Origin: an uncultured bacterium
GTDB lineage: Bacteria > Margulisbacteria > WOR-1 > CAVSGV01
NCBI GenBank assembly: GCA_963699255.1
Contig: OY969425.1
Location: 270,001-302,000, forward strand
Reading direction: 5' to 3'
Length of the DNA stretch: 32,000 bases
Shown here: piece after piece, positions 10,135 through 31,514 of the stretch
Layout: each line of letters opens with the position of its first letter
How positions within the stretch are numbered: the stretch's first letter is position 1
Translations under genes and position numbers: made by a program
Notes under the pieces: model-generated
Databases searched by the model: none
What the model was told of the DNA's origin: nothing
What the model saw: only the letters and a program-made list of their open reading frames with translations

Positions 10135-10169
10135 GCCCTAAAAGAATGCTTTCAGCATCTCTTTAGGGC
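10135..10169 (-). terminator. Candidate terminator hairpin ending the fibre operon
   Basis: Imperfect 35-nt hairpin. The outer stem is GCCCTAAA/TTTAGGGC and the inner stem is ATGCT/AGCAT with a 3-nt loop. It sits 48 nt after the 10217 stop. A second hairpin lies at 10173-10205. There is no clear U-tract, so confidence is modest. Confidence 0.35.
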
Positions 10170-10216: not shown

Positions 10217-11989
10217 TTACGGCGTAACGCCGGCGAAACTCTTGTAATCCTCCATCTCTTTTTCAAACATTCCTGAACGATAGAGCATTTCTATCAGATC
10301 CCCCATAGTGGCTGTCTCTTCAGGCGATCTGCCTGCCAGATATTCCAGAAGGCTGGCCTCATCCACATTTGTCGCTTTCGAAACATATCGCGCGGATTCC
10401 GCCCTTGTGACAGACCGGTCAGGCTTAAAAGTGCCGTCTTCATAATCTGTCATGATGCCGGCAGATTTTACCGCATTTATGAAGCTCGCCGCCCAGTGCA
10501 TGCGGTTTACGTCTTTGGAGACCGTTTTCTGCGTCAGGCTTAGATCAAGTTTTTTGGCTTTTGACATTATCAGTGCCATCAGCCCCCTTGAGAGCGGCTT
10601 GTTCAGTTTGTAATCCTTTCCAAGATAGCCGTAAAGTTCCGTATAGATGACCATGTATGCGAAACTCTTATTTTTTACTTCGTTTATGCTCAGGTCGACG
10701 GGGACATAGAATCTTACTATCCTCCTTGGTATCTCGGCTTCCGAACTGTCCGTATCCCTTAATTTTATTTGTATCTCATTCTTACCTATATTAAGAGGGA
10801 CAGATGCTTCAAATGCTCCGCTGCCTGATACGGCCAGTTTATTGCCGTATATCCAGACATCTGTCACATCAGGATCCACAGTGCCGCTGAAAACCTGTTC
10901 GGTGTCCAGAGTGTACAGGTTGCCGGAAGGAATGAGTGATATCTTCTGCATGACCGTCTTGATCGCGGCGACCTTTTCTGGCGCTGCGGCCGGGGCCGGG
11001 GCTTCTTTTGCAGGCGCGGCTGCCGGCGCAAAAACGGGCGCGCTGTAGAAAGTAAGGGAAACAATATTGGAAGCGATGTTCGTCTGGGCGTAATTCTGCA
11101 GGTATGCAAGATCGATCTTTACCCCTGAATAATCAAAGCCAAGACCAAAAGTAGTGTTGTTCGTCAGTTGCCCGCCGATCGCGGAGCTCGCCTCTTGATT
11201 ATAGCCGGCCCTGAGACTCAAATTCGGATGGACCTTCCATTCCGCGCCAAAGTGCATGGGCCAGGGAACATTGTCTCCGCCAAGGAACATATCCTCATCA
11301 AGCGCGAATTTTGCATTATACTCCAGCCACTGGAACGCCATCCCTATTTTCGTGATGAACGGCATGTCCTCCGTTTCAAAATCCCCGTAGATCTTTGACC
11401 CGCCGATAACGTTTTGGAGGTTCAATCCGTAGGATATCCACTTTTCCGGGGTGTATTTTAATCCAAGGTCAATGTTATAACCCGAGCCGGACCCGTTGAC
11501 GTCGCCGGTGTATCCTTTAGAGTAATATTTTAATGTCGCGCCGCCGTACATGTTCGGCTCATTTCCTGTGGATGGCCCGATCGATCCAAGCTCTTTTCCG
11601 TAGGACAGGACCAGGGCCTGGTTATAGAAATTTGTTGTGCCTGTAGTGCCTCCACCTGAAACATCAATGCCGTTTATTTTTGACGCGACATATCCTATCC
11701 CGAAAACACCCGATGTGGTAGGGATGACGCCGCAAAACATCGTATATTGATATTCATTCAGGAAATTTGAGCTCATCGTGGATATCTGCCAGCTTTTCTG
11801 GCTTCCGAGACCTGCGGGATTCATGAACATGGCGTTCACGTCATCCGCGACCGCAACAAATGCTTTGCCCATGCCCAGCGGGCGGGCCCCGATTCCGACG
11901 GCAATGGGATCGTCATAATAAACGATGCACCAGCAGTTTGCGGAGTACAGGATTAAAAAAGTAGATACCGCTACAAGGAGTTTTTTCAC
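10217..11989 (-). CDS. PorV/PorQ (FadL-like) family outer-membrane beta-barrel protein fused to a C-terminal SLH domain
   Basis: 590 aa with a signal peptide (MKKLLVAVSTFLILYSA). The N-terminal block GIGARPLGMGKAFVAVADDVNAMFMNPAGLG is the signature opening of PorV/PorQ/FadL-type barrels. Aromatic-rich alternating beta-strand sequence runs to about aa 315. An Ala/Pro linker follows (APVFAPAAAPAKEAPAPAAAPEK), then an Ig-like region of about 100 aa, then one SLH domain. Confidence 0.7.
   Translation of the reverse strand: MKKLLVAVSTFLILYSANCWCIVYYDDPIAVGIGARPLGMGKAFVAVADDVNAMFMNPAGLGSQKSWQISTMSSNFLNEYQYTMFCGVIPTTSGVFGIGYVASKINGIDVSGGGTTGTTNFYNQALVLSYGKELGSIGPSTGNEPNMYGGATLKYYSKGYTGDVNGSGSGYNIDLGLKYTPEKWISYGLNLQNVIGGSKIYGDFETEDMPFITKIGMAFQWLEYNAKFALDEDMFLGGDNVPWPMHFGAEWKVHPNLSLRAGYNQEASSAIGGQLTNNTTFGLGFDYSGVKIDLAYLQNYAQTNIASNIVSLTFYSAPVFAPAAAPAKEAPAPAAAPEKVAAIKTVMQKISLIPSGNLYTLDTEQVFSGTVDPDVTDVWIYGNKLAVSGSGAFEASVPLNIGKNEIQIKLRDTDSSEAEIPRRIVRFYVPVDLSINEVKNKSFAYMVIYTELYGYLGKDYKLNKPLSRGLMALIMSKAKKLDLSLTQKTVSKDVNRMHWAASFINAVKSAGIMTDYEDGTFKPDRSVTRAESARYVSKATNVDEASLLEYLAGRSPEETATMGDLIEMLYRSGMFEKEMEDYKSFAGVTP
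10370..10520 (-). other. S-layer homology (SLH) domain within the OM barrel protein
   Basis: KDVNRMHWAASFINAVKSAGIMTDYEDGTFKPDRSVTRAESARYVSKA matches the SLH consensus (DV...HWA...I....G...GY.DG.F.P....TRAE.A). There is a single copy, located at the C-terminus. Confidence 0.75.
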
Positions 11990-11993
11990 GGTG

Positions 11994-12863
11994 TTATTGG
12001 CGGAAGACCGCGACCTTTACTCGGCCAAGCTCTCTGGTGCTGCCGCCAGCATTTGAAACGATGCTGAGGACATAAACGCCTGTAGGCACCTGTTCATTGA
12101 AATAGGTCAGCGCATTCCAGGGGACGGCGTTATCTCCGGCAGAACCGCCGTTCTCTCCCGCGGGGATCGTTTTTTGCCAGATAAGCGCGCCTTTCTGGTT
12201 GAACAGATACAGCGATATTGTCGCCGCGGTATTGAGCTTATATTTTATCATTGTCGGACCCGTGGAAGGATTGAACGGATTTGGATCGTTGGACGGAGTA
12301 CCTATTATATCCACCTGACCCGGAGATTGAACGGTGAATCCGCCGGCCAGAACGCCGATCTTGCCGTAGCCCACGTTCGTGACCAGAACGTTCCTTGGTC
12401 CGACAGCGGCATTGTTCAGGTCAAAAGTGCACTCCATGCTCGTTGAACTTTCGATCGTGACCGTTGTCCCGTTAATGGTCGGCTGGCTCGGGCCGGTCAA
12501 GCTCGCTGTAGCGTCAGTGGAGATCAAGTAGCCGTTGATCACGACCCTGTATGACGCGTTGTTGTAACCTGCGTGCGGATCGATCTTTTTTACTACGGGA
12601 GTTTCTGCCGTGCTGAATGCGCCGGTCCCGTATACCACTCCAATGAACCTGCCTTCAAGCGTAAAACCTGGGCTCGTGGTGATCTGAGGAACGTTATCCC
12701 GCAGCTTGCCGATGAGCCTGTAACCGGATGATTCTATGGATGCGCCCCCAAGGTCCATGACTTCGGCGGATATCGCGTAGTTCGCGCTGGTGGCGGCTTG
12801 AGCGCCGCAACACCAGAAAAACATCAATAAGATCAATACAGACTTTTTTATTTTTGTCATCAA
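11994..12863 (-). CDS. Secreted protein with IPT/Ig-like middle domain and T9SS-type (FlgD-Ig/Por_Secre_tail-like) C-terminal domain
   Basis: 289 aa with a signal peptide (cleavage around AQA-AT). An N-terminal SANYAISAEVMDLGGASIESSGYRL motif is present. The C-terminus begins PNPFNPSTGPTMIKYKL...ISLYLFNQKGALIWQ...PTGVYVLSIV...KVAVFRQ, the characteristic layout of T9SS type-A sorting / FlgD-Ig-like domains. Its stop lies 4 nt from the start of the barrel gene. Confidence 0.6.
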   Translation of the reverse strand: MMTKIKKSVLILLMFFWCCGAQAATSANYAISAEVMDLGGASIESSGYRLIGKLRDNVPQITTSPGFTLEGRFIGVVYGTGAFSTAETPVVKKIDPHAGYNNASYRVVINGYLISTDATASLTGPSQPTINGTTVTIESSTSMECTFDLNNAAVGPRNVLVTNVGYGKIGVLAGGFTVQSPGQVDIIGTPSNDPNPFNPSTGPTMIKYKLNTAATISLYLFNQKGALIWQKTIPAGENGGSAGDNAVPWNALTYFNEQVPTGVYVLSIVSNAGGSTRELGRVKVAVFRQ

Positions 12864-12886: not shown

Positions 12887-14197
12887 TTATTTGTAAGCAC
12901 GAATAATTATCACTCCGTTCGCGCCGGCTCCGCCAGTTGCGGTATAGGTAGTGGTATTGGATCTTTGCGCGGAACCTCCCGCTCCGCCGCCTCCGTATAA
13001 CGAACCGGCTGTTCCTGTAGTGGCAGTATTGGTAGTAGCTATAAATACACTAGGGCTATGTGTGCTGAATAAGGAATTGCCGCCTGCGCCTGAAATACCG
13101 GAAGTAGATGACAGACGGTATCCCGCTCCGCCGGCGCCGCCCGGAATATTTATATCGCCAGTTGCTCCCGCTGTACCTCCTGCGCCGCCTGCGGCAGTTA
13201 AGGTAGTAGTTCCAGAGGCCATATTTGTACCTCCGCTGCCTCCATTTGCGGTAATAGCGGAAGCATTGAATTGAGTCGGGTTTCCTGCAGTGCCTACGGC
13301 AGTGCTGCCTCCTGCGCCGCCAGTTCCTACTGAGAAAGTATATGTAGTGCCCGGGCTGGTCGCGATACGCTTTATTGTGCATGCTCCGCCGCCTCCGCCT
13401 CCACCCACAGCTCCAGAGGGATTGGCACCAGTAGTACCGCCGGAACCGCCGCCGCCACCACCGATCAAAATAACTTCAATATCAGTTACGCCGGCGGGAA
13501 CAGTAAACGGGCTTGTGCTTGCCGTTGTTAATACTGCGATTCCGGAGAGAACCCCGAGATTTGTTAGGTTCGCTCCGCTGCCGGCAAAAGCAGTTGCGGT
13601 CACGGTTCCTATAAAATTCGCGTCGCCGCTTACGCCAAGAGTCGTGCTGAATGTACTGTATGTTCCGATAGATAATTTATTTTTAAAGGCGCAATAGGAA
13701 TCGCCAACGGAGAGGGAAGGATTGTCCGGATCCGCGGTTGCTCCGGAACCTCCGCCGATGTGAAATGAGGGGTCGCCTGTGCGCGCGCTCGCCGCCCTTG
13801 CTTCAAGTCTGATATTCCGCTGGCCTGATGTCACATCGGCGGTCTTGAAAATAAAATCGATCAGGGTGGTGGTAGGATCTGTCGATTCGTATATCGCGCC
13901 GTTTTCACCGTTCCTGTTGCGCAGGCGCAAGATGGATGAACCGTAGACGTCGCCGTCCTGACGCATGACCAATTCTTTGGAAGCGACAATAGTCCCGCCT
14001 TCCGTTGTGCCGACCCCGATATTTCCGTATACATCCAGCATCTGCACGGGATTTGTTTTTCCGATCGCCACCTGGGTGGTTACATCAACTGTGCCTATCA
14101 CGGTCAAGAACCCCTCGACCGACACATCTTTTGTTACGGCAAAAGCCGGAACAGAAACGATGCATATTATTAATATAAAAAATAGTATATTTTTCAT
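12887..14197 (-). CDS. Secreted glycine-rich repeat protein (paralogue 1), tail-fibre-like N-terminus
   Basis: 436 aa with signal peptide MKNILFFILIICIVSVPAFA. An N-terminal IGKTNPVQMLDVYGNIGVG motif is shared with the giant proteins. The FTVPAGVTDIEVILIGGGGGGSGG entry motif is followed by about 200 aa of Gly/Ala/Thr/Ser-rich sequence ending GVIIIRAYK. Confidence 0.6.
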   Translation of the reverse strand: MKNILFFILIICIVSVPAFAVTKDVSVEGFLTVIGTVDVTTQVAIGKTNPVQMLDVYGNIGVGTTEGGTIVASKELVMRQDGDVYGSSILRLRNRNGENGAIYESTDPTTTLIDFIFKTADVTSGQRNIRLEARAASARTGDPSFHIGGGSGATADPDNPSLSVGDSYCAFKNKLSIGTYSTFSTTLGVSGDANFIGTVTATAFAGSGANLTNLGVLSGIAVLTTASTSPFTVPAGVTDIEVILIGGGGGGSGGTTGANPSGAVGGGGGGGACTIKRIATSPGTTYTFSVGTGGAGGSTAVGTAGNPTQFNASAITANGGSGGTNMASGTTTLTAAGGAGGTAGATGDINIPGGAGGAGYRLSSTSGISGAGGNSLFSTHSPSVFIATTNTATTGTAGSLYGGGGAGGSAQRSNTTTYTATGGAGANGVIIIRAYK

Positions 14198-14221
14198 TCT
14201 GACAAAATTCTTACCGCGAAA

Positions 14222-15181
14222 TTAGTAATATACGATAACGAGTCCCGCAGCTCCGGCCCCGCCTGCTCCGCCATTCTCCTGGCCGCCGCCGCCACCGCCG
14301 CCGGGAGGAGTTCCTGCTCTTCCGGCAACGCCCCCTCCAGCGGCATTAGCGCCGGGGCCGCCAGCTCCGCCTGAACCGCCCATCGGGCTTCCGCCTCCTG
14401 TGCCGCCGCTGGCTCCATCAGCTGCTTGAGAATTTCCGCCTGTTCCGCCTGTGAGATTAATTGTCCCGCCTGATCCTGCGCCTCCTGCCCCGCCTGTAGT
14501 TGTGGCTCCTGTTGAACCGCCGGCACCCGTAAAAGTGGTTCCGCCGGCAAAACTGCTGTTGTTGCCGTTTGCTCCGGCGCCTCCGCCGGTTCCAACTGTT
14601 ACGGTCACACTAGCACCGCTTACACTTACAAGACCCGCGCTATAACCTCCGCCTCCGCCTCCGCCTCCGGATGTATTATTGCCTGCCGTTACTCCTCCTC
14701 CTCCTCCTCCCCAAACCTGAACGTAAACTTTACTTACTCCCGCAGGTCTTGTCCATGTTCCGCTGGATGTAAACACTTGTATGTTTTGCGGGACTCCTGT
14801 TCCAGGTACCCAGGCTCTGGTTTCTGACGCTGGGAGGGAAGACGCTTCAAAAGTCACTTTTTTAGTGTTGTCAGCGCCATTCTGGATATATGTGGAAGTA
14901 TCGGTCATGGTCTTATTTGTCAGGGTCTGTGTTTCCGCGGTCATTGCGAAGGTATCATTGGCGCCGGGATCCGATATGGTAAGCGTTCTTGCGGCAGCAG
15001 GGTTGTTCCAAAGAAGCGTGTAATTAGCCGTTGTCTGTTTGAACAGGATATTTGTGTTAAGGTCCAGCTGGCCTTCAATTGTGATATTGCCTGTTACGGC
15101 AAAAGCGCCGCATGAAAAAAATAATACAAGAAAAAAACAGGCAAAATTTCTTTTCATGAATATTCGCTCATAATAATTCAT
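14222..15181 (-). CDS. Secreted glycine-rich repeat protein (paralogue 2)
   Basis: 319 aa. The likely true start is the ATG at 15157 (MKRNFACFFLVLFFSCGAFA signal peptide). It contains the QTLTNKTMTD motif shared with the giant proteins. WTRPAGVSKVYVQVWGGGGGG then leads into a Gly-rich C-terminal half ending GLVIVYY. Confidence 0.6.
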   Translation of the reverse strand: MNYYERIFMKRNFACFFLVLFFSCGAFAVTGNITIEGQLDLNTNILFKQTTANYTLLWNNPAAARTLTISDPGANDTFAMTAETQTLTNKTMTDTSTYIQNGADNTKKVTFEASSLPASETRAWVPGTGVPQNIQVFTSSGTWTRPAGVSKVYVQVWGGGGGGVTAGNNTSGGGGGGGGYSAGLVSVSGASVTVTVGTGGGAGANGNNSSFAGGTTFTGAGGSTGATTTGGAGGAGSGGTINLTGGTGGNSQAADGASGGTGGGSPMGGSGGAGGPGANAAGGGVAGRAGTPPGGGGGGGQENGGAGGAGAAGLVIVYY

Positions 15182-29224: not shown

Positions 29225-30391
29225 ATGCAGGAAAAAAACGGCAAAAAACTGAAAAGGGAAAAGTGCAAATATTTAAAAGGTAAAAAAATACTTCCTCCGC
29301 CTATCAGAAAAGATGATTCTCTCTCCGACTTGATCGACCGTCACATGCTTGCTTATAACGGGGGCCGTATACGGGCCGCCTGCCATCTCCTGAAAGAAAA
29401 AATGATGAAACCCGATGTTACGGTTTGCATGACACTCGCGGGAGCTTTGACCCCTGCGGGACTTGGCGCGTCAAGCTTGATACCGCTCATCAAGGAGGGT
29501 TTTGTGGATTGGATCATCGCGACGGGCGCCAATATTTATCATGACATGCACTTTGCTTTCAATATGGACCTGAGGCAGGGCTCCCACATGATGAACGATA
29601 CGGAACTCAGGAAAAGCGGGGTCGTGCGCATTTATGACATTGTCCTTGATAATAACGTCCTGCTTAAGACCGATGCCATTTTAAGGCATATGCTTGCGAG
29701 ACCCGAGTTCCAGAAAGAAATGGGGACATGCGAGTTCTATTACAAGCTCGGGAAACTTCTTTATGAAAAAGAGAGGGCATCGGGGCTGAAAGACGCAAGC
29801 GTTCTCTCGGCTTGCTACCAGAACGATGTCCCTGTGTTCACGTCCAGTCCAGGGGATTCCACCATAGGCATGGATATCGCCAGCATGGAGCTGATATCGA
29901 AGAAATTCAGGTTGAGGATAAACCCGAGCATTGACGTGAACGAATCGACATCTATAGTTTATGCGGCAAAGGCAAAAGGCGGGAAAACGGGGGTCATCAT
30001 TTGCGGAGGGGGGTCCCCGAAGAACTTTCTTCTTCAGACCGAACCGCAGATACAGGAAGTCCTGATGATACCGGATGTAGGGCAGGACTACTTTTTGCAA
30101 ATAACGGATGCGCGTCCCGATACCGGAGGACTTTCCGGCGCAACGCCGTCAGAAGCTGTGAGCTGGGGCAAAGTGGATCCCGACAACATTGGTGATGCGG
30201 TCATTGTCTACAGCGACGCTACCATAGTGCTTCCGCTGGTGACCTCTTATCTTTTGCAGAACGTAAAGCCGAGGAAGTTGAAAAGACTGTACAAAGAAAA
30301 AGGGGAGAGTCTCGATCTGCTCAAAAAAGCATTCCATAAGCACAATACTTATTTTAAGGAGATAAATGCCATCCTCGACAAAAATGCCTAA
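29225..30391 (+). CDS. Deoxyhypusine synthase-like protein (DHS family; candidate aminobutyl transferase / homospermidine synthase-like)
   Basis: 388 aa with DHS-family blocks: TLAGALTPAGLG, IIATGANIYHDMHFAF, VIICGGGSPKNFLLQTEP and LSGATPSEAVSWGK. Confidence 0.8.
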   Translation: MQEKNGKKLKREKCKYLKGKKILPPPIRKDDSLSDLIDRHMLAYNGGRIRAACHLLKEKMMKPDVTVCMTLAGALTPAGLGASSLIPLIKEGFVDWIIATGANIYHDMHFAFNMDLRQGSHMMNDTELRKSGVVRIYDIVLDNNVLLKTDAILRHMLARPEFQKEMGTCEFYYKLGKLLYEKERASGLKDASVLSACYQNDVPVFTSSPGDSTIGMDIASMELISKKFRLRINPSIDVNESTSIVYAAKAKGGKTGVIICGGGSPKNFLLQTEPQIQEVLMIPDVGQDYFLQITDARPDTGGLSGATPSEAVSWGKVDPDNIGDAVIVYSDATIVLPLVTSYLLQNVKPRKLKRLYKEKGESLDLLKKAFHKHNTYFKEINAILDKNA

Positions 30392-31514
30392 GAACCTGAA
30401 GGTGCTGGCGAAAAAATACGGAACGCCCTTGCTTGTGATAGACCATGCAAGGATCAGGGATAAATACGCCCAATTCAGAAAACATCTGCCGAGGATAGGC
30501 GTGTATTACGCCATAAAAGCAAATCCGGAACCGGATATAATCAAGACACTTCACGCCCTTAACAGCGGATTTGATGTCGCGAGCCAGGAAGAATTCGAGA
30601 TGGTCATGGCCGCCGTGCCAAGGTCCGTGCTGAAAAAGAAGATCGATTTTGTTTACAACGACGTCATCCTCGCGAACACCATAAAGCCTGTCGAGACGCT
30701 GAAGAAGATGATCCCGTACAGGACTTTGATGACCTTTGACAACCTCGATGAGTTGAAGAAGATAAAAAAGTATTGTCCCAATGCCGGGCTTATCATCAGG
30801 CTGAGAGTCCCGAACATTGGTTCCGTTGTCGAGCTCTCTTCCAAATTCGGCATCGAGCCGTCCCAGGCCATGCCTCTTATAGACGCTGCGATAGGGATGG
30901 GCGTGGACGTGGAGGGGATCAGCTTCCACGTTGGGAGCCAGTGTCTGAACATTGAAAATTACATGAATGCCTTTAATGCCGCCTCTGAACTCCTCAGATC
31001 CGCAAGAAGCAAAGGATATAATGTGAGGCTGATAAACATCGGCGGAGGTTTTCCGGCGAATTATGAGGGAGTGGACGTGTCGTTCCCCGCGTTCGCAAAA
31101 AAACTTTCGCAGGAGATCGACAGGCTTTTCTCGAAAGAGATCGAGATTGTGGCCGAGCCGGGCCGGTACCTTGTGGCGGAGTCGGCAAAACTGGTCGTAA
31201 AGATCATCGGCAAAGCTTACAGGGACGGCAAGACGTTCTATTACATCAATGACGGAGTATATAATACTCTGTCAGGCGTTATTTTTGACCACTGCGTATA
31301 CCATTTCCACGCTTTTAAGGGAGGCAAGGCATCGACAAGCGCCGTGGTCGGGCCGACCTGCGACGCGCTTGACACCGTTTCATTGAGCGAGAACCTGCCG
31401 GACATGGAGATCGGCGACCTATTATATGTAAATGACATCGGAGCCTACAGCAGCGCGTCGGCGACGAACTTCAATGGTTTTGCAAAGGCGAAGATAGTCC
31501 ATATCAACAAATAA
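30366..31514 (+). CDS. PLP-dependent (alanine-racemase fold) basic amino acid decarboxylase, ornithine/lysine decarboxylase-like
   Basis: 382 aa. The motifs are YAIKANPEPDIIKTL (PLP lysine), ISFHVGSQC, INIGGGFP, EPGRYLVAES and GPTCDALD. A strong AAGGAG Shine-Dalgarno sequence lies 5 nt upstream. The gene overlaps the DHS-like gene by 26 nt. Confidence 0.85.
   Translation: MPSSTKMPKNLKVLAKKYGTPLLVIDHARIRDKYAQFRKHLPRIGVYYAIKANPEPDIIKTLHALNSGFDVASQEEFEMVMAAVPRSVLKKKIDFVYNDVILANTIKPVETLKKMIPYRTLMTFDNLDELKKIKKYCPNAGLIIRLRVPNIGSVVELSSKFGIEPSQAMPLIDAAIGMGVDVEGISFHVGSQCLNIENYMNAFNAASELLRSARSKGYNVRLINIGGGFPANYEGVDVSFPAFAKKLSQEIDRLFSKEIEIVAEPGRYLVAESAKLVVKIIGKAYRDGKTFYYINDGVYNTLSGVIFDHCVYHFHAFKGGKASTSAVVGPTCDALDTVSLSENLPDMEIGDLLYVNDIGAYSSASATNFNGFAKAKIVHINK

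Follow-up and report, generated by a model that had tools for sequence, protein, structure and literature searches.

A PorV-family outer-membrane barrel with a C-terminal S-layer homology module, encoded next to a type-A-like CTD protein in an uncultured Margulisbacterium

The window analysed here is a 32,000-nt stretch of contig OY969425.1 (positions 270,001 to 302,000) from an uncultured WOR-1 bacterium of the Margulisbacteria, which are relatives of the cyanobacteria. At 10217-11989 on its minus strand lies an intact open reading frame (ORF), with a GTG start and no internal stops, for a 590-aa protein in which a PorV/PorQ-family β-barrel is followed by a linker, an Ig-like domain and an S-layer homology (SLH) module. 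The gene is the last of a same-strand operon, and its most informative context is the gene that ends 4 nt before the GTG start, which encodes a 289-aa secreted protein ending in a C-terminal domain (CTD) of T9SS type (T9SS, type IX secretion system). The window belongs to a single 1.77-Mb contig, 95% complete, which is referred to below as the genome. Features of the locus are listed in Table 1.

Barrel, spacer and wall-binding tail in one chain

The N-terminal half of the protein matches the PorV/PorQ family profile NF033709 of NCBIfam, a subfamily-level model, over residues 31-312 with 98.6 bits against a cutoff of 90 (99.9 bits in the genome-wide search). The equivalog profiles score far lower, at 33.5 bits against a cutoff of 250 for PorV (NF033710) and 35.4 bits against 220 for PorQ (NF033711), indicating that the protein is neither PorV proper nor PorQ proper. 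The initial annotation of this DNA had pointed to an N-terminal PorV/PorQ/FadL hallmark motif; this motif is nearly invariant across 31 homologues (G34, R36, P37, M40, G41, A43, V45, D50, N57, P58 and G60) and closes with N57-P58-A59-G60-L61, the NPA motif of FadL-type hatch domains. A lipoprotein signal peptide (...YSANC) was ruled out by sequence inspection only, because the Asn at position -1 misfits a lipobox.

We modelled the protein with AlphaFold2 using a 31-sequence alignment as input (mean pLDDT 78.5). The model begins with a signal-peptide helix and a short helical hatch (28-63). Residues 68-315 form the ~14 strands of the barrel, 316-345 a disordered Ala/Pro linker, 350-426 a β-sandwich and 435-586 three helix-pair repeats; DSSP assigns 15 strand elements to the barrel region, one of them a mere four residues long. 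In a Foldseek search against the PDB, the top matches are the PorV chains 8gl6_F and 6h3i_F of the substrate-bound F. johnsoniae T9SS translocon (E ~1e-9, target TM 0.61, rmsd 4.3-4.7 Å). FadL, TodX and CymD come after PorV and superpose less well, the FadL and TodX matches having E values of 2e-9 to 1e-6 and FadL reaching a TM of 0.42-0.53 at an rmsd of 7-11 Å. The PorV/FadL-type barrel assigned earlier to this half is therefore borne out by both the NF033709 profile and the PorV fold match, and the strand count that had been suggested as a check gives ~14 strands plus an N-terminal hatch. In outer-membrane barrels, an even number of strands places the N- and the C-terminus in the periplasm, where the wall lies. 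With ~14 strands, both termini of this protein are thus expected to be periplasmic.

Behind the barrel, the Ala/Pro spacer and the Ig-like module that had been read from the sequence are recovered in the model and by Pfam Glucodextran_B, an Ig-like family (residues 367-424, 30.1 bits, cutoff 27). Pfam SLH (PF00395) matches residues 492-531 with 46.8 bits (cutoff 20.8), and the PDB sequence matches of the protein are confined to SLH domains, namely those of Sap and of chains 8bym/8bys/8bz2, which are titled 'S-layer homology domain-containing protein' and which we take to be V. parvula OmpM. The SLH hidden Markov model (HMM) detects repeat 2 alone, repeats 1 and 3 escaping detection, and a phmmer alignment to Sap covers two repeats. 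By structure, the C-terminal 140-150 residues superpose on the SLH modules of SpaA and Sap, each complete with its three repeats (Foldseek TM 0.54-0.61, rmsd 3.0-3.6 Å); these reference trimodules bind pyruvylated secondary cell-wall polymer. In repeat 1, R468 is invariant among the homologues and falls on the position equivalent to TRAE, and in repeat 2 the TRAE motif itself (T528-R529-A530-E531) is conserved. On the basis of the fold match and these two motifs, the protein is predicted to end in a whole SLH trimodule of which repeat 2 is the best-preserved part. The 'one clear SLH domain' of the initial annotation is therefore a genuine SLH with one sequence-recognisable repeat, but structurally it is a three-repeat module. 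Neither a non-barrel fold nor a spurious SLH match emerged, since profiles and fold confirm both parts.

Close relatives of the barrel carry SPOR (P0037, P0041 and L050) or LysM (P0038 and P0044) where the SLH module stands. The occurrence of three unrelated wall-binding modules at one position argues that the tail binds the cell wall, and we regard this swap as the strongest sequence-level argument for such a function. In addition, csaB, which had been proposed as a gene to look for, is present in the genome (262 bits against a cutoff of 213). The domain match, the pseudo-trimeric fold, the Arg motifs and csaB all fit an SLH wall-binding module with predicted ligand binding. A SLH module that instead anchors an S-layer or a surface polymer outside the barrel would be in keeping with monoderm SLH domains, which anchor S-layers outside the cytoplasmic membrane, and with the frequent occurrence of Glucodextran_B in surface proteins. 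We consider such an extracellular location very improbable, because a barrel of ~14 strands has both termini in the periplasm and because the modules that replace SLH at the same position, SPOR and LysM, bind peptidoglycan. Elsewhere in the window (29225-31514, plus strand), the gene for a homospermidine biosynthesis protein (517 bits for NF001980 against a cutoff of 450) precedes that for a pyridoxal phosphate-dependent decarboxylase of the Orn/Lys/DAP type; this is of relevance because some SLH tethers bind polyamine-modified peptidoglycan.

The genome encodes BamA (191.6 + 79.4 bits) and LpxC (305 bits), indicating that the host is a true lipopolysaccharide diderm with a genuine outer membrane. 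A profile search with working controls found no OmpA/Pal-type domain in the genome. Two tandem ORFs (484 and 558 aa) carry SLH near the N-terminus, the position known from OmpM-type proteins, so that the genome has the usual N-terminal SLH position as well as the reversed order noticed at first in the 590-aa protein. The earlier suggestion that the tail ties the barrel to the wall is supported by the SPOR/LysM swap, by csaB and by the lack of an OmpA/Pal domain.

Table 1. Coordinates of the barrel-SLH gene, its domains and the other genes of the operon (positions in the window)
Feature	Position	Strand	Basis or remark
Whole gene: PorV-family barrel protein of 590 aa, ending in linker, Ig-like domain and SLH module	10217..11989	-	Stop codon included
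Signal peptide, ~residues 1-21 (MKKLLVAVSTFLILYSA...)	11927..11989	-	Read from the sequence by eye; modelled helix at residues 2-15
N-terminal hatch/plug segment, residues 26-63, GARPxGMGxAFVAxADD...NPAGL motif	11801..11914	-	Homologue alignment; FadL NPA-mutant structures among the fold matches
Transmembrane β-barrel, residues 64-315, ~14 strands	11045..11800	-	DSSP of the AlphaFold2 model; Foldseek
Ala/Pro-rich disordered linker, residues 316-345	10955..11044	-	Sequence; pLDDT ~31
Ig-like β-sandwich (Glucodextran_B), residues 346-430	10700..10954	-	Pfam and model
Predicted three-repeat SLH module, residues 431-590	10220..10699	-	Pfam, PDB sequence matches, fold, alignment
SLH repeat 2, recognisable by sequence, residues 492-531	10397..10516	-	Pfam SLH
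Partner gene: 289-aa secreted protein with three SxSYxL motifs, IPT/Ig domain and T9SS type-A-like CTD	11994..12863	-	
Partner CTD, residues 188-272	12048..12302	-	Genome-derived HMM, model, fold
Two Gly_rich_2 (PF21722) secreted proteins	12887..15181	-	
Three large operon proteins: 1502 aa (without assigned family), collagen-like 331 aa and collagen-like 2022 aa	15181..26795	-	

The CTD partner, gene pairing and distribution of the fusion

The operon encodes, in order, collagen-like proteins of 2022 and 331 aa, the 1502-aa protein, the two Gly_rich_2 proteins, the 289-aa partner and the barrel. In public libraries, the C-terminal region of the partner matches Por_Secre_tail and FlgD_ig weakly. 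We built a CTD HMM from nine above-cutoff TIGR04183 domains of the same genome, and residues 188-272 of the partner match it with an E value of 2e-20 (70 bits); a 291-aa protein encoded upstream of a 62%-identical barrel paralogue scores alike. In the model of the partner, pLDDT exceeds 90 for the Ig/IPT domain as well as for the β-sandwich of the CTD. Residues 18-85, which include the three conserved SxSYxL motifs, are of low confidence in this monomer model; these segments might be strands that fold on binding another protein, for example a fibre subunit or the barrel. The top fold match of the partner is P. gingivalis PorU, and the remaining matches are generic tandem Ig domains. PorU keeps its CTD bound to PorV. 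In the alignment, the last CTD strand contains a basic residue (K in 17 of 19 sequences and R in 2 of 19), which, by analogy, recalls the single conserved Lys with which the type-A CTD contacts PorV (PMC10994853).

The association of the two genes extends beyond this locus. A type-A-like CTD is carried by 19 ORFs in the genome, mostly at the extreme C-terminus, and a CTD gene stands directly upstream of 9 of the 12 PorV genes (10 of 13 if a copy lost to ORF overlap is included). Random placement gave 0.14 such pairs on average and never more than 3 in 20,000 shuffles. In other genomes, 46 of the 73 barrels with an observable upstream region stand after a CTD gene, namely 17 of 25 with SLH and 29 of 48 without it, and these pairs include Bacteroidota, Elusimicrobia and Calditrichaeota records. 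The ~290-aa partner family itself is kept upstream in more than 20 loci where the barrel has an SLH tail, a SPOR tail or none. We also observed that CTD-barrel cassettes are duplicated as whole units.

PorV-type barrels with a C-terminal SLH are recurrent throughout the class and not a one-off. The genome has 13 good PorV-family genes, with SLH in the tails of six, TPR in one and none in the other six; the SLH-tailed set comprises the 590-aa protein and paralogues of 862, 563, 643, 596 and 589 aa, each with one to five or more detected SLH repeats. The survey of the architecture that the initial annotation had suggested covered 146 genomes of the phylum, and all 64 genomes of the same class contain 4-11 matches apiece, and many of the alignments start in the barrel and extend into the SLH part (positions 1 to ~545 of the query). 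A wider sample of 80 loci, taken from GTDB species representatives, contains 29 full barrels with a C-terminal SLH, every one from Margulisiibacteriota, Saganbacteria, WOR-1 or unnamed records; the barrels from Elusimicrobia, Calditrichaeota, Bacteroidota and others are bare or TPR-tailed, the TPR-tailed form being seen in Elusimicrobia, Calditrichaeota and Marinimicrobia. The named homologues of the 590-aa protein come from Candidatus Margulisiibacteriota, Saganbacteria and WOR-1, and public annotation calls them just 'S-layer homology domain-containing protein' or 'PorV/PorQ family protein'.

These data bear on the possibility that the protein acts mainly as a channel of the FadL kind that admits hydrophobic solutes, and in addition fastens the outer membrane to the wall, much as OmpM joins a porin and a tether, with the CTD neighbour being incidental. 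The protein shares with FadL and TodX the ~14-strand barrel fold, the N-terminal hatch and the conserved NPA motif, and the fold matches to both are strong. The many copies, the lack of any other OmpA/Pal-type tether in the genome and the three SLH-bearing paralogues without an upstream CTD gene would also suit such a channel. However, the profiles assign the barrel to PorV/PorQ, whereas Pfam Toluene_X (PF03349; FadL/OMPP1/TodX) has no match in the protein at E <= 1, and PorV superposes better than FadL at both TM and rmsd. In addition, the CTD adjacency is far above chance and the gene is located in a surface-fibre operon. We therefore regard a solute channel with an incidental neighbour as rather improbable. 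For FadL itself, a C-terminal wall-binding tail and a CTD-cargo context are not known.

Several further arrangements of CTD and PorV genes were observed in the genome. Three giant CTD adhesins (4722, 3365 and 3552 aa; 481069-496591, 922198-933293 and 1075559-1087230) with many weak internal CTD/FlgD_ig-like repeats are each followed by a bare PorV-like barrel, and the three barrels are mutually 90-92% identical. One cassette of a CTD protein and PorV occurs twice in opposite orientation (202045-204757 and 1259626-1261736) with barrels that are 100% identical and CTDs that are 84% identical, which suggests a recent duplication or inverted repeat with the cargo changing faster. A PorV-like barrel with a TPR tail (contig 904995-906287, L015) stands after a 1610-aa CTD protein and is followed by a 473-aa AAA ATPase with zinc ribbons (903565-904986, L028). 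Finally, a 417-aa protein with Glucodextran_B and three SLH repeats and no barrel (contig 1342961-1344214, L023) takes the place of the CTD protein upstream of a PorV-SLH paralogue (1341195-1342964), the two genes overlapping by 4 nt.

A wall-tethered dock proposed outside the canonical T9SS

We searched the genome for the T9SS machinery. SprA is absent, with just partial matches of 18-38 bits, while the same search in a Bacteroidota control gave up to 716 bits. PorU is absent as well, its matches being confined to its own CTD region. GldM and GldL have no match in the genome, a result less secure than the absence of SprA as both searches were made without a positive control. The absence of SprA and PorU together with the unmatched GldL and GldM indicates that this is not a canonical T9SS.

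We favour, with moderate confidence, the reading that the 590-aa protein serves as a static dock, tied to the wall, that holds the CTD protein and the collagen-like fibres of the operon, which would make it a one-chain analogue of the PorP-PorE-cargo complex and also a staple between outer membrane and wall. In this proposal, the SLH module would bind the wall, most likely through a pyruvylated polymer whose synthesis involves CsaB, and the periplasmic tail would span to the wall by means of the ~30 disordered residues and the Ig spacer. On the other side of the membrane, the surface loops of the barrel would hold the type-A-like CTD of the 289-aa partner, which probably stays uncleaved because the PorU sortase is absent. 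By way of this partner, the fibre proteins of the operon, both collagen-like and glycine-rich, may be anchored to the barrel as well; the fibre-handling role that the initial annotation gave to the barrel is an inference. This would give a static chain in which the barrel links the surface protein to the wall. With six such barrels in a genome, the outer membrane would also be stapled to the wall, and considering this copy number and the lack of OmpA/Pal, the proteins probably contribute materially to outer-membrane tethering.

Several observations weigh against a dock of this kind. In Bacteroidota, SprA assists the binding of the CTD to PorV (PMC10994853). This genome has no SprA, which leaves the crossing of the outer membrane by the partner unexplained. 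In the 590-aa protein, two of the three SLH repeats (1 and 3) are degenerate. Pairing is incomplete, as 3 of the 12 tested PorV genes, all of them SLH-bearing, and 8 of the 25 SLH-bearing loci elsewhere have no upstream CTD gene. The giant proteins carry weak CTD-like matches as internal repeats, so the CTD fold is not exclusively a sorting tag. Moreover, although the divergence of barrel and upstream CTD is correlated over 10 within-genome pairs (Mantel r 0.94), the correlation is driven by three recent whole-cassette duplications, and with one representative per duplicate group it is not significant (r 0.31, p 0.13). The high value thus reflects duplication as a unit and not co-evolution, which we set aside as support.

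A different reading is a divergent or minimal type IX-like secretion system, in which the barrel takes CTD cargo from an unrecognised translocon, or exports it by itself through a FadL-type lateral opening or with BAM, while the SLH tail fixes the machine in place. The number of type-A CTD proteins in the genome (19, most with the CTD at the extreme C-terminus) and of PorV-family barrels (13) would suit such a system, as would the CTD-PorV pairs in Elusimicrobia, Calditrichaeota and Bacteroidota records. It could also draw on two ~1135-aa proteins, encoded two genes downstream of PorV genes, which contain a segment like SprA positions 558-712. These matches reach 31-38 bits against a cutoff of 200, far from the true SprA of the control, and the protein family lacks a PDB sequence match and shows no link with PorV genes in 80 further loci. 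Considering also that PorU is lacking, that GldL and GldM are unmatched in searches made without a positive control, and that a barrel stapled to the wall would be unable to shuttle laterally like PorV, we judge a divergent secretion system to be unlikely. We hold at the same low level of confidence a broader idea, in which the CTD-PorV pairs would be a self-contained surface-display system that needs neither SprA nor a motor, and might represent type IX secretion of Terrabacteria in a minimal or ancestral state. Here, the barrel, acting by itself or together with BAM or the ~1135-aa SprA-like proteins, would export its cognate cargo and also hold it permanently, and in Margulisbacteria it would also have been recruited as a major staple between outer membrane and wall by fusion to SLH, SPOR or LysM.

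The two ~1135-aa outer-membrane proteins (1132 and 1135 aa; 498231-501629 in L022 and 1088250-1091657 in L020) have a C-terminal OMP_b-brl match. In both loci, the gene order is giant CTD adhesin, PorV-like barrel, NHL-repeat protein and ~1135-aa protein. A 1154-aa ORF of a Marinifilum genome matches the same SprA segment with 55.8 bits. Judged from these sequence matches, the ~1135-aa proteins could be a reduced SprA-like barrel. As a hidden translocon they were rejected, on account of the weak profile matches and of the missing PDB match and PorV linkage described above.

Relation to known systems and other observations

In the T9SS of Bacteroidota, PorV receives type-A CTDs on its extracellular loops (PMC10994853). 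With the PorV and PorQ of this T9SS (F. johnsoniae PorV in 6h3i/8gl6; the P. gingivalis PorU-PorV and PorZ-PorQ attachment sub-complexes), the 590-aa protein shares the family profile, the best fold, a FadL-like barrel with an N-terminal plug and, here by gene adjacency, the association with type-A CTD proteins. In contrast to them, it has a 275-residue tail with SLH, predicted to be periplasmic, and its gene stands one-to-one after its own cargo gene, while one PorV serves all type-A cargo in Bacteroidota. The host, a member of the Margulisiibacteriota (Terrabacteria), lies outside the phylum of the described T9SS and is without SprA and PorU.

The closest functional parallel to the proposed dock is found in the PorE-PorP-PG1035 complex of P. 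gingivalis, a wall-anchored static complex in which PorE bridges PorP to peptidoglycan, and in Bacteroidota type-B cargo genes are followed by their cognate PorP/SprF barrel genes (PMC9143113, PMC12618676). Both this complex and the operons of PorE-like, type-B cargo and SprF-like proteins in F. johnsoniae have a cargo gene followed by a barrel gene and a barrel bridged to the wall, as we propose here. They use a PorP/SprF-type barrel, a type-B CTD and a separate lipoprotein, PorE, with an OmpA_C-like domain, whereas the 590-aa protein combines a PorV-type barrel and a type-A-like CTD partner with a wall binder fused to the barrel, in a genome in which no OmpA domain was found.

The OmpM/Mep45/Slp tethers (V. 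parvula OmpM1, 8bym/8bys; cyanobacterial SLH-porins) likewise have an outer-membrane barrel covalently joined to a periplasmic SLH. However, OmpM begins with the SLH, continues as a coiled-coil stalk and ends in a porin, while in the 590-aa protein the barrel comes first and the SLH last, the spacer is a linker with an Ig domain, and the barrel is of the PorV/FadL type, PorV itself being a single-chain carrier. Furthermore, the three SLH repeats predicted here are in one chain, as opposed to one repeat per trimer subunit in OmpM. OmpM homologues were reported in Margulisbacteria and Saganbacteria in a survey of outer-membrane tethers that is silent on PorV/FadL barrels (bioRxiv 10.1101/2021.05.31.446380).

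A literature search on PorV with SLH, on S-layer homology with type IX secretion and on Margulisbacteria or Saganbacteria with T9SS returned nothing relevant. As far as we could find, no publication describes a PorV/PorQ-family barrel that is fused to a wall-binding module and would anchor cargo outside the canonical T9SS. The architecture had at first been put down as unrecognised, and this holds for the literature, but it is not rare, given its six copies in the genome and its class-wide presence. If our reading is correct, the barrel-SLH protein would represent a second, structurally unrelated class of SLH tether, multicopy in every class genome examined, beside the OmpM paradigm that is used to reconstruct the evolution of the Terrabacteria envelope. 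The PorV-CTD recognition pair, studied so far only in the Bacteroidota T9SS, would then be widespread in a phylum without SprA or PorU, which raises the questions of the route by which CTD proteins get across the outer membrane in such a phylum and of whether pairs of cargo and anchor are older than the complete T9SS. The design is also compact, with cargo tag, barrel and wall binder in two genes. It follows a logic that was recently put forward for PorE-PorP-cargo complexes, and a pair of this size lends itself to heterologous testing.

Three minor observations concern other parts of the sequence. A simple terminator scan downstream of the 590-aa gene found none; a hairpin with a 9-bp stem and without a T-run lies past the gene at ~10135-10165. 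A 133-aa ORF (14194-14595, minus strand) overlaps, in another frame, the 3' end of the gene for the 319-aa Gly_rich_2 protein (14222-15181, minus strand). Outside the window, a 797-aa ORF (contig 165844-168237; L027:345-2738) contains a complete PdxJ domain (residues 6-233) and an SLH repeat (349-391), and represents either an odd fusion of a cytoplasmic enzyme and a wall binder or two genes joined by mechanical ORF calling.

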